The notes beneath the pieces are model-generated. The model was not told the origin of the DNA. It ran no database searches and saw nothing but the letters and a program-made list of their open reading frames with translations. A DNA stretch of 64,000 nt from NCBI GenBank assembly GCA_964486995.1, contig CAZAOV010000007.1:699-64698 (forward strand), in the 5' to 3' direction. This DNA comes from an uncultured Gammaproteobacteria bacterium. GTDB lineage: Bacteria > Patescibacteriota > Patescibacteriia > SG8-24. Shown piece after piece: positions 2,991-33,262 of the stretch; position 1 is the first letter of the stretch; every line of letters begins with the position of its first letter. The translations under genes and the position numbers were made by a program.

Positions 2991-2999
2991 TGTATTGAT

Positions 3000-15798: not shown

Positions 15799-15810
15799 AA
15801 TTTTTTTGAT

Positions 15811-16206: not shown

Positions 16207-17919
16207 ATGAATATCTCTGACGAACAACTAAAGAGTTTATTGCTAAGCTCGGGGGTCATCGAAGAGTCAGATTTTAAGGTTGCCGAAGAGGTGGTCAAGA
16301 AAACCGGTCTCCCGATTGAACAGGTGCTGATATCCAAGCGCCTGATTCCTGATGCGTATTTGGGTGAGTTGGTTGCCGAAAAGTTGGGGTTAAAATTTGT
16401 CGATTTGAAATCAATCGAAATACCGAACCACGTGTTACGCCTGATTCCTGAGCGAACCGCAAAAAGGAAGCGAGCCATTGCCTTCGGCGCCAGTCTTTCG
16501 AGTGGTTTGAAGTTGGCCATGGCTGATCCGAGCGATTTGGAATTCATTAGGAACATGGAGAAAAAAACCGGCTTGCGCGCTCAGGCTTATTTTGCTACTA
16601 AGGCCGGAATTAACCACGGGCTGGAGTCGTACACTAAGGATTTGGAAAGCGCGATTCGTAGCCTTGAGGAAAAATATGCCGCATTGACGACCGGTCGGCG
16701 GAAGGGCGGCGGCGCCGAAGAAGAAAGTAAGATTGTCAGCGTCGTTGATTTGATTATGGATTATGCGTATCAGAACGACGCCTCCGACGTTCACATCGAG
16801 CCACGCGAAGATTCAGTGATGGTTCGTTATCGTGTTGACGGCATTTTGCATGACGTAGCCATACTACCGCGGGAGTACCTGTCTGCCGTCGTCACTCGTA
16901 TCAAAATTCTGTCTCGGTTGCGTACGGACGAACACTTTGCCGCGCAGGACGGAAAATTTCAGGAGCGGGTAAACGGCAATCGTATCGATGTCCGTGTATC
17001 TATTATTCCAATTGTCGAGGGAGAAAAGGTGGTTATGCGCCTGCTGTCGGAAAGGGGAAAGACCTATGAGCTAGAAAGTCTGGGACTGACGGAGGGCGAG
17101 ATAAAGGTGATCCGCAAACACTCGCGTAAATCTTTCGGCATGATTTTGTCGACTGGTCCGACTGGCTCCGGTAAGACCACATCCCTGTACGCAATTTTAA
17201 ATGAGCTGAATACTCGTCACGTAAATATTGCCACCATCGAGGATCCAATTGAGTACGCCATGGAAGGAGCAAATCAAATCCAGGTCAATCCGAAGGCTGG
17301 TCTGACTTTCGCCTCCGGCCTGCGTTCTATCGTGCGTCAGGATCCGGATATCGTGATGGTAGGAGAGATTCGTGATCCAGAGACTGCAAGCATCGCGGTG
17401 AATGCCGCCATGACTGGGCACTTGGTGCTTTCAACTCTGCACACCAACGATGCGGCGACTGCCTTGCCGCGCTTTCGAGAAATGGAAATTGAACCGTTTT
17501 TGATCGCCTCAACGATTAACGTAATCGTTGCCCAGCGGTTGGTGCGACGTCTTTGTCCGAGATGCGTAATGAGCGAGGTGGTTCCAACGAGTGAATTGAG
17601 GAATCTTATTTCTGAAGACGTCATCAAGAAGTTTTTTGCGGGTAGCGACGGCAAGATTAGAAAAAGTGCCAACCTGTATCGCGGCAAAGGATGCGACAGC
17701 TGTAACCATTCCGGCTATAGCGGACGAATCGGCATATTTGAAATTCTGGAAATGTCCGAACCGATACGGCAACTGGTGATGGGGAACGCAAATTCGCAGA
17801 CCATACAGAATCAAGCGAAAGCCGATGGAATGGTTACCATGCTCGAGAACGGCATTCAAAAGGCGCTAGAAGGTGTGACCACTATCGACGAGGTGTTGCG
17901 TGTTACCGGCGAAACCTAA
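16207..17919 (+). CDS. pilB: Type IV pilus assembly ATPase PilB (GspE family) with an N-terminal GSPII domain
   Basis: Walker A STGPTGSGKTTSLY, Asp/His boxes, tetracysteine CPRC...CDSC zinc motif; 570 aa. Confidence 0.92.
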   Translation: MNISDEQLKSLLLSSGVIEESDFKVAEEVVKKTGLPIEQVLISKRLIPDAYLGELVAEKLGLKFVDLKSIEIPNHVLRLIPERTAKRKRAIAFGASLSSGLKLAMADPSDLEFIRNMEKKTGLRAQAYFATKAGINHGLESYTKDLESAIRSLEEKYAALTTGRRKGGGAEEESKIVSVVDLIMDYAYQNDASDVHIEPREDSVMVRYRVDGILHDVAILPREYLSAVVTRIKILSRLRTDEHFAAQDGKFQERVNGNRIDVRVSIIPIVEGEKVVMRLLSERGKTYELESLGLTEGEIKVIRKHSRKSFGMILSTGPTGSGKTTSLYAILNELNTRHVNIATIEDPIEYAMEGANQIQVNPKAGLTFASGLRSIVRQDPDIVMVGEIRDPETASIAVNAAMTGHLVLSTLHTNDAATALPRFREMEIEPFLIASTINVIVAQRLVRRLCPRCVMSEVVPTSELRNLISEDVIKKFFAGSDGKIRKSANLYRGKGCDSCNHSGYSGRIGIFEILEMSEPIRQLVMGNANSQTIQNQAKADGMVTMLENGIQKALEGVTTIDEVLRVTGET

Positions 17920-17945
17920 AGGCTAGAGACATAAATTCAGGAGGA

Positions 17946-19169
17946 ATGTCATTTAAATACACTGCCGCAAACAGAGAGGGCGAGGTTCTTCATGGGGAAT
18001 CTGATTTAGGTTCGCGCGATGCGGTTTTGGGACAAATCGAATCTCAGGGTTTGATTGCTATTTCGGTCGATGAAATTGCTGACAGGAAAGAAAAGAAAAA
18101 ATTGAGTGAAATTGGTTTTGGTCGCATCAGAAACGTTGACATACTGCTGTTCACCAAGCATCTGTCGGTGATGCTCAAGGCGGGCTTAACGCTATCCGGT
18201 GCGCTAAGGGCTCTGGTCGATCAGACCAAATCACCGAAGTTCAAAAAAGTTTTGGATAACGTTCGAGCGAGGGTTGAACGGGGTGAAGGTTTTTCTAATG
18301 CGTTAGAGAAGCACCATAAAGTATTTTCCCCGTTCTATGTGCATGTGGTTCGAGCCGGTGAGATATCCGGAACCCTGGAGGAAAATTTAGAGCATCTGGC
18401 CGGTCAGTACGTCAAGGATTACAACCTGCGCAAGCGTGTCCAATCTGCCATGCTGTACCCGGGAATTGTTTTTGGGGCAGCACTACTGATCGGTTTTTTC
18501 TTCGCCTCGTATGTCTTGCCGCAGGTGAATAGCATTTTCTCCGGATTGGGTGATATCGATTTGCCGTGGGTGACCGAATTGCTAATGGCCGTCTCTAATT
18601 TCATGAGTGATAATACGTTGATTTCATTCTTAATAATGGTTGGCGCGGTCGCATTCTTCTGGTGGCTATTGCACCAGAAGTTTATCCGTCCGACTACGCA
18701 CTGGCTGACTCTGCACTTGCCGATTGTCGGCGGAATTGCGAAGGAAGTGAATTTGGCGCGGTTTTCGTTGATTTTAGGGACCTTGCTTAAAAGCGGCAAC
18801 GATATCGTTCGTGCCCTCGAGATTACACGAGAAGTATTGGACAACATGTACTACAAGCGAGTTATTGCCGAAGCGCATCTAGAAATGCAGCGCGGAATAA
18901 ATCTTCGTGAAAGCCTTAAAAAAAACGAGGATCTGTTCCCGTCGGTGGTGACGCATATGATTGACGTTGGTGAGCAGTCTGGGGAGCTGGAGGAGGTGCT
19001 GAAGTATCTCGCCGAATTCTACGAACTGGAAATCGAATCAACGATGAAAAATTTATCATCCGTTTTGGAGCCGGTACTATTGCTTTTTATTGGTTTAGTG
19101 GCCATGGGGCTAGCCTATGCGATTCTCATTCCGATTTATAACTACATTTCGGCGATTAGTAGTATCTAA
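17946..19169 (+). CDS. pilC: Type IV pilus inner-membrane platform protein PilC (GspF family)
   Basis: SD AGGAGG. Two GspF repeats and 3 TM segments; 407 aa. Confidence 0.9.
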   Translation: MSFKYTAANREGEVLHGESDLGSRDAVLGQIESQGLIAISVDEIADRKEKKKLSEIGFGRIRNVDILLFTKHLSVMLKAGLTLSGALRALVDQTKSPKFKKVLDNVRARVERGEGFSNALEKHHKVFSPFYVHVVRAGEISGTLEENLEHLAGQYVKDYNLRKRVQSAMLYPGIVFGAALLIGFFFASYVLPQVNSIFSGLGDIDLPWVTELLMAVSNFMSDNTLISFLIMVGAVAFFWWLLHQKFIRPTTHWLTLHLPIVGGIAKEVNLARFSLILGTLLKSGNDIVRALEITREVLDNMYYKRVIAEAHLEMQRGINLRESLKKNEDLFPSVVTHMIDVGEQSGELEEVLKYLAEFYELEIESTMKNLSSVLEPVLLLFIGLVAMGLAYAILIPIYNYISAISSI

Positions 19170-19253
19170 AGTCGTGGGAGCATAGGAGAGTAGGAATGTC
19201 CTTAGGTTTAGATACATCAGTTTGCAGACCCGCAACAATAGGTAGCCGCACCT

Positions 19254-19769
19254 TTGGACGCTCATACGCTTCAACGCTCACATGTTTTTATGTTCAATCA
19301 GGTTTCAAAAAACGGCAAGCAATATTTTGGCTTCACGGTCATCGAGGTCATAATAGCTGTTGCTCTATTGTTGAGCGCAGCGGCTTTGTCGGTTCCGTTT
19401 ATGTCCAGCACCCTATCGAGGAATGAACTGGATGTGGCATTACAGCGGGCTGTTGACATGCTAAACGAGGCCCGTTCATCCGCCTTCAATGGACTCGGCG
19501 GCGGTGAATTTGGGGTGCGTTTTGAGTCTGGGGCAGTGGTCTTTTTTTCCGGCGACACTTATTCAGCGGTTGATCCAGATAACGTTGATTTTATCTTGCC
19601 TGGATTTGTGAGCATTACCGACATAAGCATCAGCGGCGGCGGATCCGAGATTGTTTTCGAGAGCGTTTCCGGCGCGCCGACACAAACCGGCTCCGTCGAA
19701 TTCACTGATTCTTCCGGCGAGACAAAAACCGTGTCGGTAAACACTCACGGCACGGTGAATTTGGAATAA
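19254..19769 (+). CDS. Prepilin-type (class III signal peptide) pseudopilin/minor pilin
   Basis: Leader ...KNGKQYFG followed by FTVIEVIIAVALLL (G-1, E+5, hydrophobic helix). The real start is probably the internal ATG (MFNQ..., ~19296). Confidence 0.7.
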   Translation: MDAHTLQRSHVFMFNQVSKNGKQYFGFTVIEVIIAVALLLSAAALSVPFMSSTLSRNELDVALQRAVDMLNEARSSAFNGLGGGEFGVRFESGAVVFFSGDTYSAVDPDNVDFILPGFVSITDISISGGGSEIVFESVSGAPTQTGSVEFTDSSGETKTVSVNTHGTVNLE

Positions 19770-19771
19770 CC

Positions 19772-22732
19772 ATGTTTGTTCACAGAAATAAAATTTCTGC
19801 ACGTTTCGCTCGTTCCGGCATTTCGGTAATCGAGGTGCTTTTGGCGATAGCGATTTTTGGGGTGTTGGCCGCAAGCCTGATGATTTTGGTATGGGAGCCT
19901 TTGGTGTCTTCGAGCAGTGCGGCTCAGCGCGTGCAGGCCGTATTGTTGGCCGAAGAGGGGTTAGACGCCGCACGCTCGATTCGTAATGCGGACTGGTTGG
20001 CGCTCATTGACGGCGATCACGGAATAGATATTACCGGTGGGACTTGGGTCTTTTCTGGTACCAGCGACACGGACGGAACTTACATTCGGGTGGTCACCGT
20101 TGAGCCGGTTAGCCGAGACGTCTCTGGAGACATAACCGACACGGGCGGCACGCTGGATGCGAGAACAAAAAAAGTGACTTCGACGGTCAGCTGGGATTCG
20201 CCGTTCGGTGGCGATAAGTCGTTGTCATTCTCTACTTTTTTCACTAACTGGAACGTCATTGATTGGACGCAGGAAACTGACACGGACTTTGCCGGCGGCA
20301 TCAATAACGGCACTATCGTTACCGGCTTCGGAGACGCTGCCTATATCGAACTAGGTGCCGGCGGAGGTTCTGGTACATGGGACGTTTGGACCAGCTCATC
20401 CGTCACCCACACCACAGATGGAGATTTTTCGGCCGGAACACCGACCGACGTTACCGTGACCGGTGACGGAATTGAATTGAGTTCCGGCGGAATCGGTTCA
20501 TGGTCGGATTACGGTCTCGGTCCGGTAAGCGGGTCGTTGTACGGCATCGACATGGTTAGTTCATCAGACGGTTGGGTGTGCGGAGCGGGAGGGGCAATGA
20601 TTTCTTGGGACGGCAGCAGTTGGTCTGGATCAGAAAGCGTGGCCGGAACTAACACATATGCCGTTGATATGGTGTCTTCGACCAATGGCCATGCCGCTGG
20701 CGAGTGGAGCCTGCTTTATTCTTACAACGGGTCTTCTTGGTCATACGAGGGTTTTGATGTCCTGCAGAATATTACGGCTATCGGCATGGTCGATGGCAGT
20801 GACGGCTGGGCGGGCAGCAGTGGCGGTCGCGTCTTGCGGTGGGACGGGGCAGATTGGAATTTCTTCACCGATATTGGCGCAGAAGAAGTCGGGGACATTT
20901 ATATGCTTAGCACCAGCGACGGTTGGTTGGTTGCGCAGAACGGGCGAATTGAACGGTGGGACGGCTCCTCTTGGTCCGCATTTACTTCACCTACCTCGTC
21001 CTATCTGCGGGCAATCGACATGATTGATGCCAATGACGGCTGGGTGGTGGGTGATTCAGGCACTATTATTCGTTGGAATGGTTCCAGCTGGTCATCAGTT
21101 TCGTCTCCGACTTCTGATGACCTTTATGGCATATCGGTCGTAGCGTCAGATGACGTGTGGGCAGTGGGCGAAAGCGGCCGCATAATCCACTGGGACGGCT
21201 CTAGTTGGTCGAGTGTTTCTTCACCGACCAGCGAAAATCTTTACGACATTGCCATGGTTTCAAATGCAGACGGCTGGGCCGTTGGAGCCAACGGGACCAT
21301 TTTACGATTCGAACTTTCGTACGCTTCACCGGGCATACTAGAATCATCCGTCATCAATAGCGGTAAAACCGGAACCAGCTGGAGCCAGGTTTCCTGGACC
21401 GAGTCTTTACCTGCCGGAACCGATGTTACGGTGGCGTTTCGTTCTGGTGATACGGCAACACCGGACGGTAGTTGGTCGTCTTGGGGTTCGGAGGTCACGA
21501 ATGAAACCGGCAGCGCCGTCACCTCGTCCAGCTCTCAATATCTGCAATACCGTGTCACCATGACCACCAGTTCAATCGACACTCCGCGACTGGAGGACAT
21601 TACGGTTACGTATGACGAAGTGACCAGTAGCGATTTGTACGGTGTTGGCGGCAGCGCGGTGGATGACGTGTGGACAGTGGGTGAGTCCGGAACCTTATTG
21701 AACTATGACGGTTCGTCCTGGTCCAGCTTCAGTTCGCCGACCGGAAACGACATAAATGCCGTGGACGTACTGGCGTTCAATGACGCTTGGGCGGCGGCGG
21801 ACAGTGAGCAGTTCTTGAATTGGGACGGTTCCGCCTGGACCATAGTCAGCGATATCGGCAGCGGAACACTGAACGATATTGACTTGATTACGTCTTCGTC
21901 CGGTTGGGCAGTCGGTTCGGGCGAGGAATTCTTTGAATATGATGGCTCGTCATGGTCCGAGCTGTTCGATTTGGGCGAAGATACGCCCCAAGCCGTGTTT
22001 ATGCTTTCCGCCGTCGAGGGCTGGGCAGCCGGATCAAGCGAAAAATTTTATCGGTATGATGGTTTGTCATGGGCCGATTTTTCTGATTTGGGCGGCGAAA
22101 CCATTTACGACATTTACATGATTAGTTCGTCCGAGGGCTGGGCAGTCGGTTCGGGCGGCAAGTTTTACCGCTGGAACGGAACCGCCTGGTTCGAGTATGT
22201 GGACGTCGGCGGGGCTACGCTATACGGAGTGATAATGATTTCTGCGGTCGAGGGCTGGGCAGTCGGTTCGGGCGGCGCCCTGTACGAATGGGACGGCAAC
22301 TCATGGTCGTCTGTCGTTTCCGGAGTGACTGAAGATCTATATGACGTGTCCATTGTTTCGACGTCGCCGACGATTGCCTGGGCGGTGGGTGCGAACGGAA
22401 CTCTATTGAGTTTAACTGCCGGAGGTTCAGGAACCAGCGGCACTTACGAATCCAGTATTCTGGATACGGACAGCACCGATTCAATTTGGGAAACCATGTA
22501 TTTCGATGTCGTGCTGCCCAACGATTCCACCGCTACTGTTGCCTTGCGTTCCGGCGATACGCCAACACCGGACGGTAGCTGGGCGTCATGGAGTTCAGAG
22601 ATTTCAGTCACCTCTGGCACAGCGGTTCCGGTTTCCGGCGCTCGGTACCTGCAGTACCGCGTTACTCTAGAGAAAAATACCAGCCCCGATTCCCCGGAAT
22701 TTCACGGCATCACCATTACCTATACGCAATGA
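19772..22732 (+). CDS. Giant pilin-like protein (986 aa): prepilin N-terminus, ~12 beta-propeller-like WDGSSW repeats, and a twice-repeated ~110 aa C-terminal module
   Basis: N-terminus RSG/ISVIEVLLAIAIFGVLAASLMIL. Repeated ...DGWAVG..G.I..WDGSSWS... units of ~50 aa. Duplicated module (L/F)RSGDT.TPDGSW.SW.....G......YLQYRV at aa ~520-640 and ~870-986. Overlaps the next gene (ATGA). Confidence 0.8.
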   Translation: MFVHRNKISARFARSGISVIEVLLAIAIFGVLAASLMILVWEPLVSSSSAAQRVQAVLLAEEGLDAARSIRNADWLALIDGDHGIDITGGTWVFSGTSDTDGTYIRVVTVEPVSRDVSGDITDTGGTLDARTKKVTSTVSWDSPFGGDKSLSFSTFFTNWNVIDWTQETDTDFAGGINNGTIVTGFGDAAYIELGAGGGSGTWDVWTSSSVTHTTDGDFSAGTPTDVTVTGDGIELSSGGIGSWSDYGLGPVSGSLYGIDMVSSSDGWVCGAGGAMISWDGSSWSGSESVAGTNTYAVDMVSSTNGHAAGEWSLLYSYNGSSWSYEGFDVLQNITAIGMVDGSDGWAGSSGGRVLRWDGADWNFFTDIGAEEVGDIYMLSTSDGWLVAQNGRIERWDGSSWSAFTSPTSSYLRAIDMIDANDGWVVGDSGTIIRWNGSSWSSVSSPTSDDLYGISVVASDDVWAVGESGRIIHWDGSSWSSVSSPTSENLYDIAMVSNADGWAVGANGTILRFELSYASPGILESSVINSGKTGTSWSQVSWTESLPAGTDVTVAFRSGDTATPDGSWSSWGSEVTNETGSAVTSSSSQYLQYRVTMTTSSIDTPRLEDITVTYDEVTSSDLYGVGGSAVDDVWTVGESGTLLNYDGSSWSSFSSPTGNDINAVDVLAFNDAWAAADSEQFLNWDGSAWTIVSDIGSGTLNDIDLITSSSGWAVGSGEEFFEYDGSSWSELFDLGEDTPQAVFMLSAVEGWAAGSSEKFYRYDGLSWADFSDLGGETIYDIYMISSSEGWAVGSGGKFYRWNGTAWFEYVDVGGATLYGVIMISAVEGWAVGSGGALYEWDGNSWSSVVSGVTEDLYDVSIVSTSPTIAWAVGANGTLLSLTAGGSGTSGTYESSILDTDSTDSIWETMYFDVVLPNDSTATVALRSGDTPTPDGSWASWSSEISVTSGTAVPVSGARYLQYRVTLEKNTSPDSPEFHGITITYTQ

Positions 22733-25700
22733 AGCGAGCCAAACAAAATAATAATCGCGGTATCGCCTTGCTGGAATTGATTATCTATCTGGGTCTGCTT
22801 GGCTTTGTACTTTCGGCAATGGTCATGTTTTCGGTCGAGTTTGCGGCCACCCACGCCAAGTCCGCGGCACTGGCCGAATCGGCGCGCAATACCAAGTTTG
22901 CAGTGACGAGAATCGCGTATGAGGTGCGTCGGGCCGAGTCCATCGACTACGACAACTCAACTCTCGATACCAGTCCGTCTGTCCTGACGCTTGAAACTTC
23001 CAATCCGTCCACCAATCCAACCGTTATTTCAGTGGTCGAAAATCAGCTGATGATGAGTCAGGGTGGGGGAGCGGATATTCCGCTCACGCCATCGCAAGTC
23101 GAGGTGGAGGATTTTACGATTATAAACGTGGCCGACACGACTCGCAGTCGGTCGATTCGGGTTGCGCTCACGTTGGGTATTGTCGAGTCGGGCAGCTTGG
23201 AAGAGTTTTCGGGAGTAACTTCCTACATGACTACGGTGCGGGTTTGGAAAGACGATGGCTATAACACCGAGGGCACACCACCGACTCCGACACCGACCTA
23301 TGGCCAGTCGGCATATCGCTTCTTTGCCAACGACGATTCCACTGATGTCGGCGCTCCGTTGGCGGCTCAAGATTCAGCCGCCGCACTTTCTTCCGATGGC
23401 AATCCGTTCCGTTTGCGTATGATGGTGGATGTTGATACCGCAACGGTGGCGACCAGCGCAGCCTCGTTCAAGCTGCAATTCGCGGAGAAGTCTGGCGCTT
23501 GCGATACCTATTTTGTTGGCGAGTCCTACGAAGACGTAACCGCGATTTCCGATATCGCCTATAACGACAACTCTCCCTCAGATGGCGTGGCGCTAAATGC
23601 CAACGCTAATGATCCGGTGCGAGCCGGCCGAACGTCCGTTGCGCAAACGTATGAGGAAGCCAATAATCTGACCAACTCGAATCAGATTTTGGCTGGTCAG
23701 ACCGGATTATGGGACTTTGCGCTAATTGACAACGACGGCACGGACGAAAAAGAATATTGTTTCCGTTTGGTGCACTCCAGCGATTCTCAGCTTAATGACT
23801 ATTCGGTCGTGCCGGAAATTTCCACGGCCGCTGGTTCCACCACCGATGTTTTCCGCGTCACCGAATATTACATTACCGCCGGAGAGTTTAGCGGGGACAC
23901 CTATGACCTTACGCTGGACCAGGCTTTGGCTTCCAACTATTTTACGATTATTCGCGGCAGCGACGGTAGCGGCACGGGCGGCGGCAATCGTGGCCCTGAT
24001 GAAAATTATGTTTCTTTGACCGCTGACCCGTTCGGAACGGGGGAACTGGTACCGTCTTCCGGTTCGGATGTACTGCAACTCACTCGCCATAATTCGGTTG
24101 ACGGTTGGCAGGGAGTGGTAACGGTAGCGGAGTGCCTAGGCAACTGTTCGACTTCCGGATTTGAATTACTGGACGTGCGTCGCGTGGTACATTCCGGCAC
24201 CTCTACCGGCGGCACAGAGACAGCAGGAGCCAGCTGGTCAGATATTGATCAAGTTATGCTGCTTGGCGGCTACAATGGCGCGGGCTGTGACAGTATCGAG
24301 ACCGATTCAGGCAGCCATCACAGCTGTCACGTTCGTCTTTGGCCGTCAGGCAGCAACCAAATATTTTGGACCAGAAATAGTTTGGGCGGTTTGATGACCG
24401 CAACTTCTACGGTACAGGTGCTGGAGTGGGGGAGCGACTGGACGGTGCAAAGACGCACGGTGACCGGAAGCTCCGGCGGCGACGGTGCCGATCAGTTGAC
24501 CGAGTATGATCGTACGGCCATCAGTTCGGTAAATCGTGACGCCACTTGGGTGTGGGGCACTGGGCATACGAGCGAAAGCGGAACTGGTGACAGCGCCGAA
24601 GCGTCGCTGATTACATTGGGTGACGGAGTTAACCTGAACTCGTCCGAATCTTGGGTGTCCGTCGGTCAAGAGGTCGATTGGGCAAACAAAGAATTCGAGG
24701 TGTATGCGCTGACTCATCCGAGCTTGATGGTTGATTACCGCTTCAAGCCGGACGGAAACGAGAGTGACCTGACCTATGATCAGGCGGTTAATTCGGCTAC
24801 GGCCGGCCTGCGGATGTCAGTGGCTTACAACGGGTCTGACGGTTCCGGCTCGCAGTACCCGCGGCCCATCTTCTCGACTCGGTATGCTTCCGATACATCT
24901 GTTCGTATGGAGCGCCGGCGTGTCGGCGCAGAATTCCCAGCTTGGATTCAGGGTATAGACTTTTCCAATATTATGGCTGGAGGTGGTCCGCCACCGAGTG
25001 CCACGTTGACTCAGTCGGCCTATCGTATATTCGATAACGACGATTCTACCGATGTGGGTGCACCCTTGGCAGCGCAAGATACAGCCGCCACCCTAACCGC
25101 AAATGAAAGTGAGTTTAGGCTTCGCTATTTGCTGGGTATCGACACGTTCGGGCTATCGATGTCAGGGGAGAGCCTTAAACTTCAGTACGCCACCAAGTCG
25201 GGTACGTGCGATACCGCATTTGCGGATGAAAGTTATGCTGACGTGACTGGCGCCACAGCCATTGCCTTCGCCGATAACTCGCCGTCCGATGGTGTCGCGC
25301 TGACCGAAAACGCGAACGACCCGGTGAGCGGTGGCCGAACAACGATCGCTCAAACATATGAAGAGAATAATAATCACACTAACACGACGGCTATCGCCAA
25401 CGGTGAGGCCGGGTTGTGGGATTTCGCCCTGGTTGACAACGACGGATTAAACGCCGCCGACTATTGTCTGCGTGTGGTGCGTTCTGACGGCAGTCTGCTC
25501 GACACCTATTCGGTTATCCCAGAAGTCTCAACGGTCTCCGGATGCGGAGTGATTTTTAGCGACGATTTCGAAGACGGCGATGCTTCTGACTGGGTACATA
25601 CTTGGGATAGCGGTGTCGATTGGAACGTGGTTGATGTCGGCGGAAACAATGTCTATGAAAACACCAGCTCAACCTACTCGCAGACCCAAGCCCCTTCATT

Positions 25701-28395
25701 TGGCGATGATGATTACGTTTATACGGGGCAGTTTACGATCAGCAATTATGGTATCCACGGATTTATTTTCCGTTATCAGGATGACAGTAATTTTTGGCGT
25801 CTAGTGTTTGAGTTTGGTCAGGTTCTGATTCGCGGTCAGGTGGGTGGGTCCTGGACAAATGCGGCCGGGCAGTCGGTAATCAATTGGTCTCCGACCGTCG
25901 GCACGACGTATAACATCAAGGTCAAAGCTGAAGGCAGTCAACTGGACGGAAAGTGGTGGGAAGACGGGACCGCCGAACCGGGTTCGTGGATGATTTCTGC
26001 CAATGACAGTCAGATATTGACTGGCTATGCGGGCGTGAGCAATCGTGACGGCACGCAGTTCGATAGTCTGTCCGTCACTACCTGCCTGACCGATCCGGTG
26101 ACTGGGTCGGTCACCGTAATTGACCCGAACGGCAATGATTCACTTATTGCTGGTTCGAACTATGAAATCCTGTGGAGCTCGTCGGACACTTCTGGCAATG
26201 TCGATATTGAATATTCGACCGACAATTTCGTTGCCGACATTAATTCGATTGCCAACAGCACGGCAGATGACGGAAGCTACTTTTGGACCGTTCCAAGCCT
26301 GGACAGTTCAACGGTGCGCGTGCGCATCAGCGACTCGGCCGATGCTGGCGTGACCGACACAAGCGACGCGGACTTCGAGATTTCCATGCCGCCGAGCGTC
26401 ACCGTAACCGACCCGAACGGCGGCGAGTCGCTCACTTCCGGTGACAGTTTTAATATCACCTGGATATCCATTAATTCCTCCGGATTCGTAGATATCGAGT
26501 ATTCAACCGACAATTTTGTTACCGATATAAATACGATAGTTGCCGGAACAGCCGATGACGGAATCCATGCCTGGAACGTGCCTGCTCTGGACAGTTCCAC
26601 CGTGCGCGTGCGCGTAACCGATGCGTTCTACGCCGGAATTGCAGATACGAGCGACGCGGACTTCAGCATCGCCACGCCGAGCACTGTCACGGTGACCGAC
26701 CCGAACGGCGGCGAGTCGCTCACTTCCGGTGACAGCTTTAATACCACCTGGACCTCCAACAACACCTCGGGCACGGTTGATATCGAATACTCCACCGACA
26801 ACTTTGTGTCCGATATCAATTCGATAGTTGTCGGAACCCTCGATGACGGTCTTTATGGCTGGACCGTTCCGAGTTTGGACAGCTCGACCGTACGCGTACG
26901 CGTTACCGACTCGGCCGATCCCGGCGTGACCGACACCAGCGACGCGGACTTCAGCATCGCCACGCCGAGCACTGTCACCGTGACCGACCCGAACGGCGGC
27001 GAGTCGTTAAACTCACAAGATTCATTCGACGTTACCTGGACCTCCAACAACACCTCGGGCACGGTTGATATCGAATACTCCACCGACAACTTTGTGTCCG
27101 ATATCAATTCGATAGTTGTCGGAACCCTCGATGACGGTCTTTATGGCTGGACCGTTCCGAGTTTGGACAGCTCGACCGTACGCGTACGCGTTACCGACTC
27201 GGCCGATCCCGGCGTGACCGACACCAGCGACGCGGACTTCAGCATCTCTACACAACCTACGTTCCGGGTAACCGAATACTACGTCACCAACAGTCAATTC
27301 AATCAGCAATCATACACCCTAACGCTCGACCAGGACTTAGAATCAAATTATTTTGTTATCGTCCGCGGCAGTGACGGTGACGGCAGCGGCAATGGCCATC
27401 GTGGTCCGGACGAGAACTACGCGGCATTGGCGGCTGACCCGTTTGGTACCGGTGATTTGAGCGATTCCGGTGCGTCAAACCAGATTGATCTTACCAGGCG
27501 GGGTGACACAGATGGCTGGCAGGGGGTAGTCACCGTAGTTGAATGCTTGGGCGACTGCGACTCGTCTGGCTTCGAACTGATTGGAGTCGAAGAGGTTACA
27601 CATTCTGGCAGTAGTACCGGCGGACAAGATACGTCCTCAGTTTCCTGGACCGACATCAATCAAATCATGCTGGTCGGCGGATTTTATGGCGCTGGCTGCA
27701 ACACCGATGAAAGCGACCATGTAGATCATGTCAGTTGCTTCGCCAAGATTTGGCCGGGCGGAACCAATGAAATTAATTGGTCCAGAGATGTCGGCGGCAA
27801 TAGTTCCCTGAGCACGGCCACCAGCACGGTCATGGTCATGGAGTGGGGGAGCGAATGGAACGTCCAGCGAGTTGATGTTGTCGGCAATAACGGCGGCAAC
27901 GGCGCGGACAGCACCGGCGAATACGACACGGCCAGCATCTCACCGGTGGCTCGGGTCAACACCTGGGTTTGGGGAACCGGTCACGTGGACGATGACGGTA
28001 TCGGCGATTCGGCCGAGGGGTCATTGGTTACGCTGGGCAACGGCGTGAACCAAAACGCCACCGAGTCGCAAGTAGCCGTAGGCAGTGAATACGGTGACGA
28101 CAAGGACTATGTGGTATATGCGCTAACGCACCCAGGCCTAGCGGTAGATTATTTCTTCAAGACCGACGGTCAAAGAGGCGATTTAACCAATGACGCGTCG
28201 GTTGATTCGGCGCCGGCCGGCAGTCGTATGGCGTTGGCCTATAACGGCTGTAACGGCACGGGACATGCTTATCCGAGGCCGATATTCTCGGCGCGATATT
28301 TATCGGACACGTTTATCCGCATGGAGCGGCTTCGGTCCGGTCAGGCATTTCCAGCTTGGATTCAGGGCATCGACTTTAGCGAGATAAAACATTAG
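22729..28395 (+). CDS. Giant pilin-like protein (~1888 aa): prepilin N-terminus; domains A-B, then A', a LamG/ConA-like domain, 4 tandem ~96 aa Ig-like repeats, and B'
   Basis: Start MKRAKQNNNRG/IALLELIIYLGLLGFV (class III signal). ORF track begins further upstream at 22588 inside the previous gene. Internal duplication of a ~190 aa domain (YRFFANDDSTDVGAPLAAQD... x2) and a ~370 aa domain (FRVTEYY...AWIQGIDFS x2). WRLVFEFGQVLIRG region consistent with a LamG-like fold. Confidence 0.8.
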   Translation: MKRAKQNNNRGIALLELIIYLGLLGFVLSAMVMFSVEFAATHAKSAALAESARNTKFAVTRIAYEVRRAESIDYDNSTLDTSPSVLTLETSNPSTNPTVISVVENQLMMSQGGGADIPLTPSQVEVEDFTIINVADTTRSRSIRVALTLGIVESGSLEEFSGVTSYMTTVRVWKDDGYNTEGTPPTPTPTYGQSAYRFFANDDSTDVGAPLAAQDSAAALSSDGNPFRLRMMVDVDTATVATSAASFKLQFAEKSGACDTYFVGESYEDVTAISDIAYNDNSPSDGVALNANANDPVRAGRTSVAQTYEEANNLTNSNQILAGQTGLWDFALIDNDGTDEKEYCFRLVHSSDSQLNDYSVVPEISTAAGSTTDVFRVTEYYITAGEFSGDTYDLTLDQALASNYFTIIRGSDGSGTGGGNRGPDENYVSLTADPFGTGELVPSSGSDVLQLTRHNSVDGWQGVVTVAECLGNCSTSGFELLDVRRVVHSGTSTGGTETAGASWSDIDQVMLLGGYNGAGCDSIETDSGSHHSCHVRLWPSGSNQIFWTRNSLGGLMTATSTVQVLEWGSDWTVQRRTVTGSSGGDGADQLTEYDRTAISSVNRDATWVWGTGHTSESGTGDSAEASLITLGDGVNLNSSESWVSVGQEVDWANKEFEVYALTHPSLMVDYRFKPDGNESDLTYDQAVNSATAGLRMSVAYNGSDGSGSQYPRPIFSTRYASDTSVRMERRRVGAEFPAWIQGIDFSNIMAGGGPPPSATLTQSAYRIFDNDDSTDVGAPLAAQDTAATLTANESEFRLRYLLGIDTFGLSMSGESLKLQYATKSGTCDTAFADESYADVTGATAIAFADNSPSDGVALTENANDPVSGGRTTIAQTYEENNNHTNTTAIANGEAGLWDFALVDNDGLNAADYCLRVVRSDGSLLDTYSVIPEVSTVSGCGVIFSDDFEDGDASDWVHTWDSGVDWNVVDVGGNNVYENTSSTYSQTQAPSFGDDDYVYTGQFTISNYGIHGFIFRYQDDSNFWRLVFEFGQVLIRGQVGGSWTNAAGQSVINWSPTVGTTYNIKVKAEGSQLDGKWWEDGTAEPGSWMISANDSQILTGYAGVSNRDGTQFDSLSVTTCLTDPVTGSVTVIDPNGNDSLIAGSNYEILWSSSDTSGNVDIEYSTDNFVADINSIANSTADDGSYFWTVPSLDSSTVRVRISDSADAGVTDTSDADFEISMPPSVTVTDPNGGESLTSGDSFNITWISINSSGFVDIEYSTDNFVTDINTIVAGTADDGIHAWNVPALDSSTVRVRVTDAFYAGIADTSDADFSIATPSTVTVTDPNGGESLTSGDSFNTTWTSNNTSGTVDIEYSTDNFVSDINSIVVGTLDDGLYGWTVPSLDSSTVRVRVTDSADPGVTDTSDADFSIATPSTVTVTDPNGGESLNSQDSFDVTWTSNNTSGTVDIEYSTDNFVSDINSIVVGTLDDGLYGWTVPSLDSSTVRVRVTDSADPGVTDTSDADFSISTQPTFRVTEYYVTNSQFNQQSYTLTLDQDLESNYFVIVRGSDGDGSGNGHRGPDENYAALAADPFGTGDLSDSGASNQIDLTRRGDTDGWQGVVTVVECLGDCDSSGFELIGVEEVTHSGSSTGGQDTSSVSWTDINQIMLVGGFYGAGCNTDESDHVDHVSCFAKIWPGGTNEINWSRDVGGNSSLSTATSTVMVMEWGSEWNVQRVDVVGNNGGNGADSTGEYDTASISPVARVNTWVWGTGHVDDDGIGDSAEGSLVTLGNGVNQNATESQVAVGSEYGDDKDYVVYALTHPGLAVDYFFKTDGQRGDLTNDASVDSAPAGSRMALAYNGCNGTGHAYPRPIFSARYLSDTFIRMERLRSGQAFPAWIQGIDFSEIKH
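26746..27240 (+). repeat. Near-identical ~288 bp tandem repeat inside the giant pilin (Ig-like repeats 3 and 4), ~210 bp of perfect nucleotide identity
   Basis: acctggacctccaacaacacctcgggcacggttgatatcgaatactccaccgac...gacttcagcatc occurs twice, 288 bp apart. Repeats 1-2 (26390..26690) are more diverged. Confidence 0.8.
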
Positions 28396-28397
28396 AT

Positions 28398-28820
28398 ATG
28401 ATAATTATCAAACCAGCGCAAAATACTGATAGGGGAGCCGTCGCTTTGATTACGGTAATTGTTTTAGGCTCGTTACTGCTTATACTCGGTCTGTCCGCTT
28501 CTTACGTTGGGCAGACAGAAATAATTATCGCCGGCCAGATGGACCGGGGTCAGCATGCTCGCACTCTAGCCGCTACATGTATTGAGGAAGCGCTGCATCG
28601 TCTCAAACTAGATGATGCATATGCAGGAGGAACGATTGATATTGATTCCGATTCTTGCGCAGTTACGATTATCGGCGCCGGTTCATCACGTACTATCACC
28701 AGCACGGCCATCTCGGGGGATTTTACCAAGAACATCGAAGTCATCGCTTCCCTAAGGCAAAATGCCGATACCGATGCCTCGGCATGGAACATAGATTCGT
28801 GGACTGAGTTAGACCCGTAA
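28398..28820 (+). CDS. PilX-N-like minor pilin
   Basis: N-terminus ...TDRGAVALITVIVLGSLLLILGLSASY resembles the PilX_N family (RGxALxxxLLLLxxLxxLG); 140 aa. Confidence 0.55.
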   Translation: MIIIKPAQNTDRGAVALITVIVLGSLLLILGLSASYVGQTEIIIAGQMDRGQHARTLAATCIEEALHRLKLDDAYAGGTIDIDSDSCAVTIIGAGSSRTITSTAISGDFTKNIEVIASLRQNADTDASAWNIDSWTELDP

Positions 28821-29086
28821 ATAGAAGATAAAAATGTCGTTTATCTCCCAAATCACCTGAGAGGCACAGAAGCGCAAAATAAAGACATTATAAAGCAGAG
28901 GGATGGTGGGGCGCGAGTTCACACACATAAGCTCTATCGCCTCTTTGCCCTCTGACCCTCAGGCTATTTTTTGCCAAGCTAAGCTATTACCGGTATCTAC
29001 ATACACACAGTTTATTTTAAATATGTTACTATAGTAGTGGCGAGCTATTTGATGCCAGTTTTTGGCACATAACGCCTTCATATTTT

Positions 29087-31732
29087 ATGTCCGGCAAGGC
29101 AGTTGGAATTGATATATCAGATCGCTCAATTGAGATGGTTTCCATGCGGGAAAAAAGCGCTGGAACCATTGATGGTGTGACACGAGCCGAACTACCTGCG
29201 GGGATAATTTCGCGAGGTAAGATTGAGGATTACGATGAGCTGTTGAAGCGAGTCAAGAGTCTTCTAGATGATTTATTTGGTGCTCGTCGTGGCAAGATTG
29301 ATGTGGGCATGGCCATGACAGAAACGATGGTCTATTCCAAAATATTCAGAATGCCGCAGGGGTTGGGCTACGATCATTATGCGAAAGCGCTGGAAATAGA
29401 GGCAATAGAGGAATTTCCGTATGACTTAACTTCGCAAGTGATTTCGAATTTTGTGCTGGTTCGGTCTGGAGAGAAAGAACGGGAATTTTTGTATGCCACC
29501 GTGGATGCGGATAAGGCTAAAGAATACGAACGCCTGCTGAACGAAGCTGGAGCTAACCCCGTTTTCTTTGAGCCTGAATCATCGGCTCTAGCCAGAGCGG
29601 CGGTGTCGCCAGAGCTATCATCGGACGCGCTTTTAGCTGATATCGGAGCGCGCACCACGATGCTGGTTGCCCTAGGAGTTAAAGGCGAGCCGGTGCTGAG
29701 TTCAGCAGTTCCTGTAGGTGGTGACATTTTGACTACAGAGATTGAGAAAAGACTCAACGTTACACTCGCGGAAGCGGAGGCAGTAAAGAGACGCAGTGGA
29801 TTTGACGCCAGCGTGGATGATGGGCGCGTCATGTTGATTCTGCAGAACCCGTTCGATGAAATAGCTAAAGAGATTAAGATAACCATCAATTATTATCACG
29901 AAAAGACTGGACGCGACATTAATAAGATAGTCTTGGCTGGCGGCACGTCGCTACTGCCCAAGGTTATGGATTACATGTCATCGCGCTTTGCGGACGTAGA
30001 AGTTTCTCGAGCCGATCCGCTAAAGAGGTTTGCGGTTAAACCGAACATAAAGCTACCACCAAAATTCAAACAAGAGGCCGTCTTATATTCGACGGCAGTC
30101 GGACTGGCAGTTCGTGCGGCGGGCTCGCGCGACCGTCCCGGTCCTAACTTACTACCGTCCGCTCGCGGCCACGGTCGCAAAAGCGGAGGGTTCATAAATT
30201 TCATTCGTTCTCTATTTAAAAAGCCCCTTCGTCCTATGTCACCAACCAAAAAGTCACCAAGAAAAAAAGCTTCACCCAAGAAGTCAATTAAGAAAAAGAC
30301 AGCTACCAAGAAGAAATCTTCTAAGCCCTCCTCGTCCAAGAAGGCTGCTATCGATTTTGATGCCAAAAAGGAGGAAATAAAAGAAGAGGAGGAGGTGGTT
30401 GAGACCACGGCCACGCAAGAGCCTGAAGAGGCGAAGGGCGATGCCGCGTCTGGTTTGAATGCAATCGTTGAGGCTGAAGATTCGGTCGATGCCGATGAGG
30501 GTATCGTTCCAGAACGAGATTTTGGTATGGGAGTTGGTGATATTTTGTCCGGTTCGTCAGAGAAAAAGGATGCCGACGAACAACTCGAGAGTGACGAGGC
30601 AGTAGATAAGGTTTCGATAGAATCGATTCTGCAGGGTCGGTCTAGTGGGGGAGCTGATGGCGTCTATGAGGACGATGAATATGGAACCGTTGAAGAGGAT
30701 CCACACCCGAAAAAGAGAAAGATTCGCTGGAGCGTAGCGATTCCGTTGGTGGTGTTCGTACTGGCCATCTTACTGGTCGCGGAAGGGGCTGGTTTGTTCG
30801 GTCGGGGCGGTTCGTCAAAGCTGTTCTCTGCAATTACGCCTTTCTTCGGAGGAGATGGAGGAAAGGAGCAAACGACTGAACCGGCTGAAACCGGACCGGT
30901 CGTTCCTTCGTTAATTTCCATGAACGTATTAATTTCCTCGGTCGAGGATGAGGAAGAAGTAGCAGTTTCGGTCGTTCCTTCGCGTATCATCGAAACTGAT
31001 GTGACCGCAACTGATTCTTTCCAGGCTACCGGCGAGGCTCCGGCTGAAGAGGCGCGTGCTGTGGGCACGATAACTGTGGTCAACGAAACATCGAACGACT
31101 ATCGCTTCGTCGCGACCACGCGCTTTTTGTCCACGGACGGCATATTGTTCCGCCTCAAGGAAGAGTCAGATATTCCGGCCAACAGCACGGCCGATGTTGA
31201 GGTGTATGCGGATGAAGTTGGTGCTTCCGGTGACATTGGTCCGTCCAGGTTCACTATTCCAGGTTTGGGCGGAGATTTGGAGCAGTACGTCTATGGACGA
31301 AGTCGAACCGCCATGACCGGTGGTAGCGGCACCGTGGCTGCAGTTAAGGAAGACGATATTGAAACCGCCCGCGCTACGCTGTTAGACCGTTTGTTTGATG
31401 AAGCGCGCGAAAATTTTAGGTCCATGATTTCGGCTGGGGAAATAGTACTTGATGATCTGATTACCTCTAATGAGTTGGACTCCACCCTGCCGGATATCGG
31501 GCAGGAAGGTACTGCGTTCGACGTGGCGCTCACAGTTCAGTTCAGCACCCTAGTGGTGCCAGAAGCGGATTTGCTGGCAAAACTAGGCGAGAAGCTTCTC
31601 GAAGAATTGCCAGAAAATGTAGTGCCGACCGACTATGAGCTGGGTGCGATGCTGTACACCGTCGAGGCATTCGACACTACCAGCGGTCGAGCAGAAATTC
31701 GCGCAGAAGCACCGGTCCAACGCATTCAATAA
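29087..31732 (+). CDS. pilM: PilM-PilN(-PilO-like) fusion: N-terminal actin-like PilM, K-rich linker, TM anchor, large extracytoplasmic C-terminal domain
   Basis: AVGIDISDRSIEMVS (PilM N-terminus), K-rich segment PTKKSPRKKASPKKSIKKK..., TM RWSVAIPLVVFVLAILLVAEGAGLFG, then a ~330 aa periplasmic-type domain. Confidence 0.8.
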   Translation: MSGKAVGIDISDRSIEMVSMREKSAGTIDGVTRAELPAGIISRGKIEDYDELLKRVKSLLDDLFGARRGKIDVGMAMTETMVYSKIFRMPQGLGYDHYAKALEIEAIEEFPYDLTSQVISNFVLVRSGEKEREFLYATVDADKAKEYERLLNEAGANPVFFEPESSALARAAVSPELSSDALLADIGARTTMLVALGVKGEPVLSSAVPVGGDILTTEIEKRLNVTLAEAEAVKRRSGFDASVDDGRVMLILQNPFDEIAKEIKITINYYHEKTGRDINKIVLAGGTSLLPKVMDYMSSRFADVEVSRADPLKRFAVKPNIKLPPKFKQEAVLYSTAVGLAVRAAGSRDRPGPNLLPSARGHGRKSGGFINFIRSLFKKPLRPMSPTKKSPRKKASPKKSIKKKTATKKKSSKPSSSKKAAIDFDAKKEEIKEEEEVVETTATQEPEEAKGDAASGLNAIVEAEDSVDADEGIVPERDFGMGVGDILSGSSEKKDADEQLESDEAVDKVSIESILQGRSSGGADGVYEDDEYGTVEEDPHPKKRKIRWSVAIPLVVFVLAILLVAEGAGLFGRGGSSKLFSAITPFFGGDGGKEQTTEPAETGPVVPSLISMNVLISSVEDEEEVAVSVVPSRIIETDVTATDSFQATGEAPAEEARAVGTITVVNETSNDYRFVATTRFLSTDGILFRLKEESDIPANSTADVEVYADEVGASGDIGPSRFTIPGLGGDLEQYVYGRSRTAMTGGSGTVAAVKEDDIETARATLLDRLFDEARENFRSMISAGEIVLDDLITSNELDSTLPDIGQEGTAFDVALTVQFSTLVVPEADLLAKLGEKLLEELPENVVPTDYELGAMLYTVEAFDTTSGRAEIRAEAPVQRIQ

Positions 31733-31809
31733 AACATAGATTATTAACTATCCATTAAGCAATTAATCGGGCATATAATTGTCCTGATGCTATAAATTAA
31801 ACAGTAAAT

Positions 31810-32400
31810 ATGAAGCGCAATAACAAAGGTTTTACCCTAGTCGAGCTCCTAATCGTCATCGGCATCATCGGTTTTCTGGCCGCAGCCATCTTGGTGGCGG
31901 TCGACCCGGTCAAGCGTATCCAGGACTCACGCAACTCCCAGCGCTGGTCAGAGGTCAACTCAATCCTGAACGCGGTGCTGAAGAAGCAGGTTGATGATCG
32001 GGCTCTGTATAACGGCGACTCAGCGGCACCCATCATCACCAGTGCCGACTATGCTCAGGTCATTGTCGAGGATGCAACCGATATAGTTTGTAATGTCGAG
32101 AGTACTCGACCCGGTTGCGATACAGCTTTGGATGTAAGCGCGGCGGACGCCGACTGCGTGGCGCAGCTTTTCGAAAATACTTCTCCGGGCACAGAACATC
32201 TTAATCCGACCTACTTGGCTGAAATGCCAACCGATCCCGGTGATGCCACCTGTCTGGATAGCGGAGACTGCACAGCGTTTGGTGACATTGTCATTGGTGA
32301 TTCGAATAGCGGTTATTATATCAAGCGAAGCACCGGCAACCGAATCGAGATTGGCGCATGTCAGCCGGAGCAGGGCGCTACCATCAGCGTCAAGCGATAG
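31810..32400 (+). CDS. pilA: Type IV major pilin (PilA-like), copy 1
   Basis: MKRNNKG/FTLVELLIVIGIIGFLAAAILVAV class III signal; 196 aa with 4 Cys in the C-terminal D-region; followed by terminator ATCCCGCTCCGTCTGAGCGGGAT-T5. Confidence 0.85.
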   Translation: MKRNNKGFTLVELLIVIGIIGFLAAAILVAVDPVKRIQDSRNSQRWSEVNSILNAVLKKQVDDRALYNGDSAAPIITSADYAQVIVEDATDIVCNVESTRPGCDTALDVSAADADCVAQLFENTSPGTEHLNPTYLAEMPTDPGDATCLDSGDCTAFGDIVIGDSNSGYYIKRSTGNRIEIGACQPEQGATISVKR

Positions 32401-32424
32401 CAATCAAATAGCGTGAATAAAAAA

Positions 32425-32453
32425 ATCCCGCTCCGTCTGAGCGGGATTTTTGT
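32425..32453 (+). terminator. Rho-independent terminator after pilin copy 1
   Basis: ATCCCGCTC-CGTCT-GAGCGGGAT followed by TTTTTGTTT. Confidence 0.65.
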
Positions 32454-32531
32454 TTACTTATGGTGTCGGACTGAAATAGATGCTAAAATATGAATACACC
32501 ATAAAGAAATCTCTCTAAACAAGATTTAAAT

Positions 32532-33137
32532 ATGAAGCGCAATAACAAAGGTTTTACCCTAGTCGAGCTCCTAATCGTCATCGGCATCATCGGTTTTCTG
32601 GCCGCAGCCATCTTGGTGGCGGTCGACCCGGTCAAGCGTATCCAGGACTCACGCAACTCCCAGCGCTGGTCAGAGGTCAACTCAATCCTGAACGCGGTGC
32701 TGAAGAAGCAGGTTGATGATCGGGCTCTGTATAATGGTGATACCGATGTCGCACCTGGCGATGGAGCCCAAATCATTACTCACGCCTCTAATGTGCAAGT
32801 CATCGTTTCGGACGTGACAGGTATAAGCTGTGACGCACCAGCAAATCGACCAGGCTGCAATCAGACAATGGATACCACGGCGGGAAGGAATTGCGTTGCT
32901 AAACTCTTTGATCCGGACACGGCCGATCAAGATGATGAGCATTTGAATCCGAACTATATGGCCGAGATGCCGCTCGATCCGGCCGAAAATGCCTGCGCCA
33001 GCGGCTGTACAACTCTTGGTAACTTAGCTATCGGAGATACCAACAGCGGCTACTACATTCACCGTACCACCGGCAACCGAATCGAGATTGGCGCCTGTCA
33101 GCCGGAGCAGTCGGCAACCATATCCGTGAAGCGCTAA
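32532..33137 (+). CDS. pilA: Type IV major pilin (PilA-like), copy 2: 5' 203 bp identical to copy 1, conserved 3' block, divergent middle
   Basis: Nucleotides 32532..32734 identical to 31810..32012. Shared 3' accggcaaccgaatcgagattggcgcNtgtcagccggagcag. Central ~120 codons homologous but highly diverged. Terminator CCCCGCCCTCACTGGGCGGGG-T4 at 33163..33188. Confidence 0.85.
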   Translation: MKRNNKGFTLVELLIVIGIIGFLAAAILVAVDPVKRIQDSRNSQRWSEVNSILNAVLKKQVDDRALYNGDTDVAPGDGAQIITHASNVQVIVSDVTGISCDAPANRPGCNQTMDTTAGRNCVAKLFDPDTADQDDEHLNPNYMAEMPLDPAENACASGCTTLGNLAIGDTNSGYYIHRTTGNRIEIGACQPEQSATISVKR

Positions 33138-33196
33138 GGCTGAACATCAAGCGGTAAACAAACCCCGCCCTCACTGGGCGGGGTTTTGTCTCGTTT

Positions 33197-33262
33197 AAAA
33201 ACTGTCAGACTTGTTTTAAGGCGGACGCGGAGCCGTCCCTTAAAACAAGTCTGACAGTTTTT
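33197..33262. repeat. Hairpin family 1, copy 2 (AAAACTGTCAGACTTGTTTTAAGGCGGAC ... GTCCCTTAAAACAAGTCTGACAGTTTTT)
   Basis: ~27 bp stem sharing the core CAGACTTGTTTTAAGG with the 6511..6600 hairpin. Confidence 0.6.

Follow-up and report, generated by a model that had tools for sequence, protein, structure and literature searches.

Tandem paralogs encoding surface filaments may undergo concerted evolution by interlocus gene conversion, and the flagellin genes flaA and flaB of Campylobacter are an example. Among pilins, PilE1 and PilE2 of Streptococcus sanguinis have an identical alpha-1 helix and polymerize stochastically into one heteropolymeric pilus, for which a mosaic surface has been proposed (PMC10628169). 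Neisseria has a single complete pilin gene, the variable part of which is converted by partial genes (PMC2188307), and this antigenic variation needs a G-quadruplex (G4) structure and a small RNA (sRNA) (PMC13463697). The pili of Saccharibacteria TM7x comprise small major pilins and large minor pilins, one of them bearing a beta-propeller, and PilX2 mediates host binding (PMC11623550). Pili are the best candidates for host finding, host holding and DNA uptake in Patescibacteria, and their subunits are little known outside Saccharibacteria; for Patescibacteria, our literature search turned up no article that treats gene conversion or tandem pilins. Here we analyze two tandem type IV pilin genes, pilin A and pilin B, in a 64,000-nt stretch of contig CAZAOV010000007.1 (assembly GCA_964486995.1), deposited as an uncultured Gammaproteobacteria bacterium and placed by GTDB in Patescibacteriota. 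This whole stretch is called the window below, and all positions are counted from its first letter.

Both genes lie on the plus strand, pilin A at 31810..32400 and pilin B at 32532..33137, and encode prepilins of 196 and 201 amino acids (aa), respectively, with the same leader and alpha-1 helix and different globular domains. We consider it likely that they are old full-length pilin paralogs, separately terminated, whose 5' ends were recently homogenized by ordinary gene conversion of the repair type, as opposed to a programmed switch of antigens. The tract of perfect identity comprises 208 nt (31805..32012 in A and 32527..32734 in B, plus strand), namely the 5 nt preceding the start codon (TAAAT) and the first 203 coding bases, which specify the leader and the alpha-1 helix to codon 68. 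The two copies are direct repeats standing 722 nt apart. The identity ends sharply with the second base of codon 68, the next base being the first to differ (AAC/AAT), and residues 1–70 are the same in both proteins. An earlier note on this DNA, made from the sequence without database searches, had described 203 bp of perfect 5' identity with abrupt divergence afterwards; this is borne out, with an extension of five nucleotides upstream. In a run-length permutation of the 143 differences over 579 aligned sites, a run of at least 203 identical sites was obtained in 0 of 20,000 cases, the longest run being 54.

The synonymous sites of this tract are what points to recombination. At codons 1–68 the proportion of differing synonymous sites (pS) is 0.02 and that of non-synonymous sites (pN) is 0. 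Codons specifying the same amino acid in A and B differ in one case out of 61 in the first 62 mature codons, versus 39 out of 72 elsewhere (Fisher p=1.6e-12). Against the nearest relatives (loci L080, L081, L007, L001 and L002), the same 62 codons yield pS of 0.55–0.92 and pN of 0.01–0.05; across 761 pairs from different genomes, the share of same-amino-acid codons that differ has a median of 0.49 in the N-terminal part and of 0.53 in the rest. Since they are synonymously saturated against other genomes, the 5' codons are free of nucleotide-level constraint. The loss of synonymous differences precisely where codons diverge freely between genomes indicates that the 5' identity is recent and recombinational. 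A tree of the N-terminal nucleotide sequences groups A and B together as sisters (bootstrap 100%). Both ends of the tract match the limits of alignable, conserved sequence, that is, 5 nt before the ATG and the end of the conserved helix. Selection on the mRNA or on codon usage was also considered as the cause of the 5' identity and was rejected, given the synonymous saturation of the same codons between genomes.

The globular parts have a different history. The core of the globular domain of pilin A (32013..32331, plus strand) is divergent from that of pilin B: at codons 69–176 pN is 0.30 and pS is 0.86, which is saturation, and the proteins are 57% identical after codon 68. The earlier description of the central region as homologous and heavily substituted with conserved cysteines is thus accurate, as all six cysteines align (positions 94, 103, 116, 148, 154 and 184 in A; 100, 109, 121, 155, 159 and 189 in B). 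In the remaining C-terminal codons, after codon 176, pS is 0.49 and pN is 0.11. The middle of A is 59–63% identical to its nearest relatives, the pilins P0002 and P0003, and the middle of B is 61–64% identical to the same two; the whole post-helix part of B is 68–69% identical to P0002, P0003 and P0014, above its 57% to A. Each globular part is therefore at least as near to the single pilins of other genomes as to the neighboring copy, and in a neighbor-joining tree of this part A and B are not sisters. We read these relationships as a star rather than as resolved orthology. The saturated synonymous sites, together with heads that are not each other's closest relatives, show that A and B are old paralogs.

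Sequences outside the coding regions agree with this. The regions upstream of A and B, the 131-nt spacer between the genes and the downstream regions are mutually unrelated, which excludes a recent tandem duplication of a whole unit. Another scenario, offered in essence by the earlier note, is that the genes were duplicated very recently and that diversifying selection then rapidly changed the middle; the tandem arrangement and the perfect identity of the 5' ends speak for it. It is, however, refuted by the saturation of synonymous sites in the middle, as positive selection does not raise synonymous change, by the divergence past the shared 3' block described below, by the unrelated flanks and by the closer similarity of the globular part of B to P0002, P0003 and P0014 than to A. 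We regard this duplication scenario as extremely improbable.

Selection on the middle was estimated by the ratio of non-synonymous to synonymous substitution rates (dN/dS), which the earlier note had proposed as a check. Among close relatives the crude dN/dS in the middle is about 0.1–0.2 (pN 0.09 and pS 0.62 for L080/L081; pN 0.14 and pS 0.51 for the L001 pair). These values indicate that the heads are under purifying selection overall, and they fit neither drift, with a ratio near one, nor pervasive positive selection. An alignment of 34 family sequences shows the same general pattern as the pair, with residues 7–68 and the C-terminal NSGYYI..GNRIEIGAC..VKR nearly invariant and residues 69–165 variable. 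Conserved ends and a variable middle are hence best explained by purifying selection on the polymerization helix and the C-terminal strand; being family-wide in unrelated genomes, the pattern is no sign of conversion. Gene conversion, to which the earlier note had ascribed the pattern, thus stands on the lost synonymous differences, while the conserved ends around a divergent core, from which it had been deduced, do not speak for it. More generally, where conserved ends enclose a variable middle, the synonymous sites must be examined before the pattern is put down to recombination.

Toward the 3' ends, the genes share a 42-nt block (32332..32373 in A and 33069..33110 in B, plus strand), which codes for TGNRIEIGACQPEQ including the last cysteine. 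Its sequence is ACCGGCAACCGAATCGAGATTGGCGC[A/C]TGTCAGCCGGAGCAG, with one base differing between the copies and no further occurrence in the window. The shared block seen by the earlier note is therefore real, and it exceeds chance. Of the same-amino-acid codons, one out of 14 differs within the block, against 13 out of 18 in equally conserved flanking codons (Fisher p=3e-4), and the run-length permutation inside the non-5' part gives p=2e-4. Other genomes coding for the same 14 residues are 3–7 nt away from the copies in the window. The block is probably a second, short conversion tract. Beyond it, in the last 27 nt of the genes, five of seven same-amino-acid codons differ.

Two near-identical tracts bracketing the variable region exactly might also be homology arms. 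According to this explanation, the 5' segment and the 3' block would have served for swapping a globular cassette between the copies or for importing it by natural transformation, and the mosaic would record the import of a foreign middle, not the homogenization of the ends. The absence of a sister relationship between A and B in the globular part would fit such an exchange, as would the pilin number at this site in relatives (one, two or four) and the ComEC-type competence genes in the window (53537-56006). A recent whole-gene duplicate with only its middle replaced is nevertheless not what we see, since the copies have diverged in their last 27 nt and the intergenic flanks are unrelated to each other. 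Database searches did not reveal a donor either. No relative more than 70% identical to either globular part was found among 5.8 billion proteins, and the globular part of pilin B, used as a query by itself, gave nothing above 69% identity, so that no recent horizontal donor can be named. A metagenome scan with pilin A retrieved four real relatives only (58–70% identity) and no same-species variants; exact-sequence look-ups of pilin A, pilin B and the database copy P0001 matched no contig; and in a cluster look-up pilins A and B were singletons, both from one contig of 64,895 bp. In the collections searched there were thus no exact or near-exact relatives and no strain-level or chimeric variants. 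Taken together, cassette exchange seems unlikely as the origin of the mosaic, and we retain gene conversion of the ends of old paralogs.

The homogenization is not confined to the window. Synteny with the window is seen in its two closest relatives, L080 and L081, where PilM is followed by a protein of ~500 aa, a pilin, a minus-strand 85-aa gene, ProRS and HU. At the syntenic site there is one pilin in L080 and L081, two in L082 and L083, and four pilin-like genes in L084, of which three matched the family model; other loci with the pilin family, from independent assemblies, have two to four copies. In the L082 pair, 13 of 55 same-amino-acid codons differ in the N-terminal part versus 43 of 76 in the rest (p=1.8e-4), with an exact run of 69 nt, and the two copies are sisters in the N-terminal tree (82%) and not in the tree of the globular part. 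The three copies in L005 also have fewer N-terminal synonymous differences (p=1.7e-3 to 6e-6), including a 104-nt exact run that begins at the mature N-terminus. Significantly fewer synonymous differences in the N-terminal part than in the rest were found in L012, L011 and L038, and the signature was not seen in L001, L010 and L013. The signature in five loci (L082, L005, L012, L011 and L038) and the incongruent trees of L082 argue that 5' homogenization is a repeated process in this pilin family. In the other arrays it is weaker, which suggests older or partial events, and the window appears to be the most recent case found.

These arrays also bear on the possibility that the tandem is an artefact of assembly, in which two strain alleles were stitched together or two 5' ends collapsed to one consensus. 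The assembly is of the metagenome type, both proteins are singletons on one contig and the repeat exceeds typical short-read k-mers, all of which would favor such an error. Unlike the case of an allele bubble, though, A is joined to B by the spacer of 131 nt, which is unique and contains a terminator and a -10-like element. Furthermore, tandem arrays of two to four pilins are present at the same site in many independent assemblies, and several independent arrays show the weaker 5' homogenization. An artefact is accordingly quite improbable.

Family members are found in assemblies with diverse taxonomic labels. There are 748 homologs at E<=1e-3, nearly all from metagenome-assembled genomes (MAGs) of Patescibacteria (Uhrbacteria, Parcubacteria, "Patescibacteria group"). 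We regard the genome of the window itself as Uhrbacteria/Parcubacteria-like. The pilin-family contigs of L004, L005, L011, L014, L017 and L018 are in MAGs labeled Vicinamibacterales, Acutalibacteraceae, Gammaproteobacteria and Binatia, and are probably mis-binned Patescibacteria. Some members are 260–340 aa long, and the profile matches their globular part two or three times (L010 4766-5704, L015 2488-3225, L016, L017 and L018), which suggests that the head borne by their single alpha-1 helix has been duplicated internally.

By every available sequence-level test, A and B are type IV pilins. Their common N-terminus is MKRNNKG followed by FTLVELLIVIGIIGFLAAA: a short, basic leader of 7 aa ending in Gly(-1), then Phe+1 and Glu+5, with the mature start read from the sequence as FTLVELL. 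The corresponding G7, F8 and E12 are invariant across the family alignment of 34 sequences from many genomes, as are four of the six aligned cysteines, and all 36 invariant family columns are present in both pilins. The prepilin N-terminal methylation motif (PF07963) scores 36.1 bits in A and 36.0 bits in B, both passing the cutoff of 21.2. An AlphaFold2 model of pilin A, computed from the 34-sequence family alignment, predicts a lollipop with a helix at residues 10–62 followed by four beta strands (mean predicted local distance difference test score, pLDDT, 78.8). The family profile matches the PilE1 chain 8pfb_G over positions 9–112 (E=1.3e-4).

Each gene is followed by a putative intrinsic terminator, in agreement with the earlier note. 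The one after A (32421..32451, plus strand) has a 13-bp stem (CCGCTC/GAGCGG) and then a T-run (dG -23.6 kcal/mol, z -7.4), and the one after B (33160..33186, plus strand) is likewise a hairpin with a T-run (dG -24.0 kcal/mol, z -4.5). Upstream of A there are -10-like elements (31772..31796, plus strand), a perfect TATAAT at 31774-31779 within CATATAAT (31772-31779) and TGCTATAAA (31788-31796). B is preceded by the extended -10-like element TGCTAAAAT (32481..32489, plus strand) of the TGCTAWAWT motif, which is also found 75–93 nt upstream of family pilins in L080, L081, L007, L004 and L005. TGCTATAWT-type elements, akin to those before A and B, precede family pilins in other genomes. The terminator after A and the extended -10-like element before B make separate transcription of the two genes plausible. 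From the invariant columns, the PF07963 matches, the terminators, the -10-like elements and a pN well below pS in the middle, both genes look functional.

The completeness of both genes is difficult to reconcile with programmed variation of the pilE/pilS type, which the earlier note had suggested and in which one expressed pilin is rewritten from a donor by high-frequency conversion initiated by G4 and sRNA. Conversion between pilin copies did happen, as this explanation requires, and the conserved 3' block around a cysteine resembles the cys2 region, which anchors recombination in Neisseria. Both copies are, however, full length, with a start codon, leader, -10-like element and terminator. 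TBLASTN with A and B found no truncated or silent copies in the 64-kb window, the sole extra match being an unrelated prepilin N-terminus at 22729, and the window contains no (G3+N1-7)x4 motif on either strand. Finally, the tract transferred is the constant region, which pilS donors do not have. We give this explanation hardly any credence.

The sequence of events that we propose is as follows. Very recently, homologous recombination between the copies would have overwritten the 5' end of one copy with that of the other, beginning 5 nt ahead of the ATG and reaching codon 68; the event would have been an intrachromosomal gene conversion of the RecA type, or two unequal exchanges with the same outcome; a separate short patch of ~42 nt would have been converted in the conserved C-terminal strand. 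By analogy with known pilins, one prepilin peptidase would cut both proteins, given their identical leader and alpha-1 helix. No prepilin peptidase was found among the window open reading frames (ORFs) scanned, and its gene is presumably elsewhere in the genome. The same analogy suggests that A and B would be interchangeable in the filament core while their heads expose different surfaces, and that a single heteropolymeric pilus might contain both or each might build an alternative filament. The 208-nt direct repeats would be prone to unequal crossing-over leading to deletion or expansion of the array, which fits the one, two or four pilins at the syntenic site. The marks of interlocus gene conversion are found together here, namely a segment with low pS, free between-genome divergence at the same sites and discord between segment trees. 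The process thus appears to be ordinary interlocus gene conversion, by which the assembly domain of tandem paralogs for a surface filament evolves in concert.

A more far-reaching and doubtful idea is that the end of the operon is a copy-number-variable array of pilin cassettes, in which the 5' segment and the 3' block are portable anchors used to add, delete, homogenize and swap surface domains. If this were true, the array would recombine internally as well as with DNA that enters by the pilus/ComEC competence apparatus, and the pilus surface of these ultrasmall, host-dependent bacteria would change at the population level (host range, escape from phages or grazers) with no silent cassettes involved. 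Deletion between the 208-nt repeats would then convert an A+B pilus into a B-only pilus in a single step.

Several points weigh against the explanation by recent conversion between two functional major pilins. Perfect identity over 208 nt in a metagenome-derived contig could partly reflect consensus or collapse. The deep nodes of the globular-part tree are poorly bootstrapped. The evidence for the 3' block is weaker than that for the 5' tract, and the block is similar in some genomes by codon bias already (3–5 differences to L001). A strict scan for two-hexamer sigma-70 promoters found no full promoter before the pilins, only -10-like matches, and a comparison of the globular head of the pilin A model with solved structures gave no convincing pilin match. 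The label "major pilin" is suggested by the size of the proteins, the position at the end of the operon, the own terminator, the abundance of the family and the fraction of Gly+Ala+Ser+Thr (GAST), and the GAST excess is modest (0.31–0.32 in the pilins versus 0.25–0.28 in PilC and PilB). Expression, processing and co-assembly of both pilins are predictions. The terminator stem of pilin A resembles the terminators of the single pilins in L080 and L081, and the globular part of pilin B is slightly nearer those pilins; as the "original" copy, the terminator would thus favor A and the globular part B.

Pilins A and B are located at the end of a complete type IV pilus operon recognized by Pfam scans (12883..31732, plus strand). 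Its genes are, in order, a histidine kinase, two response regulators, PilB, PilC, a GspH-like minor pilin, a 986-aa prepilin, a 1935-aa protein, a 140-aa ORF and a PilM fusion. All of the following are on the plus strand: the PilB ATPase (16207-17919; T2SSE, 421.9 bits), the platform protein PilC (17946-19169; T2SSF, 192 bits), the GspH-like minor pilin (19254-19769; Pfam), the 986-aa prepilin (19772-22732), which has a weak prepilin motif, BNR/beta-propeller repeats and 117-nt DNA repeats at 21668-22308, and a giant prepilin-like ORF listed as 1935 aa (22588-28395). The latter has no Pfam match, but TBLASTN located a prepilin-like N-terminus at 22729-22839; it contains four 288-nt repeats (26110-27273) and may be a giant pilus-tip protein. 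The 881-aa PilM fusion protein (29087-31732, plus strand; PilM_2, 105.2 bits) consists of PilM fused to a C-terminal region of ~500 aa through a low-complexity K/S/E-rich linker. Similar fusions are found in L082 (938 aa; 2060-4876) and L083 (895 aa); the fusion is split into two overlapping ORFs in L080 (388+484 aa; 312-2919) and L081 (300 aa, cut by the contig end, +503 aa; 20-2420). A PilT-like ATPase is encoded at 10290-11405 (T2SSE, 142.6 bits). ComEC is represented by two overlapping ORFs, with the Competence domain at 53537-55087 and the metallo-beta-lactamase domain at 55071-56006, which could be a split gene or a frameshift.

Downstream of the pilins, a gene on the minus strand (33288-33548) is convergent to the last pilin; it encodes 85–87 aa without a Pfam match, and its position is kept in L080, L081, L082, L083 and L084. 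A perfect 66-nt palindrome (33197..33262; dG -44.3 kcal/mol, z -8.6) lies between it and pilin B, A-rich ahead of the stem and T-rich behind, and has a second copy at 6518-6583. The palindromic element (AAAAACYGYCAGACTTGTTTTAAGG ... CCTTAAAACAAGTCTGRCRGTTTTT) is thus repeated between convergent genes at 33197-33262, 6518-6583 and 35778-35796, and is probably a bidirectional terminator or an element resembling repetitive extragenic palindromes (REP-like). L080 has a long palindrome of unrelated sequence at the same position. A scan of the window with Rfam found three tRNAs only and nothing in the pilin region. At 11460-11911 there is a 222-nt tandem duplication (11460-11681 / 11682-11903) with 186 nt perfectly identical, which is the second perfect repeat of more than 180 nt in the contig. 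Its second copy ends in tRNA-Arg(TCG) (11837-11911); the first carries a degenerate tRNA-like copy, whose anticodon loop is shorter and whose acceptor stem has a 3' strand that is not complementary, and which is called neither by ARAGORN nor by Rfam.

In summary, the locus is a statistically strong example of tandem major-type pilins that appear to keep an identical helix by recurrent conversion while their surfaces stay diverged. The result is confirmatory rather than surprising; the case is robust and tidy and comes from a phylum that has been little studied, and it does not by itself open a long-standing question.

The described systems resemble this locus in different respects. As in TM7x, the pili belong to Patescibacteria and include a beta-propeller prepilin, the 986-aa BNR/propeller prepilin of the window being reminiscent of PilX2. 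The TM7x major pilins PilA1 and PilA2, however, are encoded in separate loci with separate machineries and form two filaments, whereas A and B are adjacent, have one machinery and share an identical N-terminus. Neisseria pilE/pilS has in common with A and B the RecA-type non-reciprocal transfer between pilin copies and the short conserved blocks bordering variable sequence. It differs in that many silent cassettes, promoterless and truncated at the 5' end, supply the sequence for rewriting one expressed gene, while here there are two complete genes, and in that Neisseria moves the variable region, while in A and B the constant region was transferred.

As regards the evolutionary process, the likeness is to concerted evolution of the flaA/flaB type, which features tandem paralogs, segments homogenized within genomes, diverging orthologs and incongruent segment trees. 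Pilins are another protein family and form another filament, and in A and B only the assembly domain and a short 3' patch seem to have been homogenized, the antigenic core being deeply diverged. As regards function, the arrangement of A and B is likely nearest, by analogy, to that of S. sanguinis PilE1 and PilE2, with two major-type pilin genes in one locus, an identical alpha-1 helix and differences confined to the surface-exposed globular part. PilE1 and PilE2 are extensively identical throughout, unlike A and B, the heads of which are 57% identical and synonymously saturated; moreover, co-assembly has been seen in the monoderm S. sanguinis, whereas for A and B, from an uncultured Patescibacterium, it is a prediction. 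Heteropolymeric or alternative pili, structurally documented in bacteria so far only for S. sanguinis, may nevertheless be common in these monoderm-like lineages.

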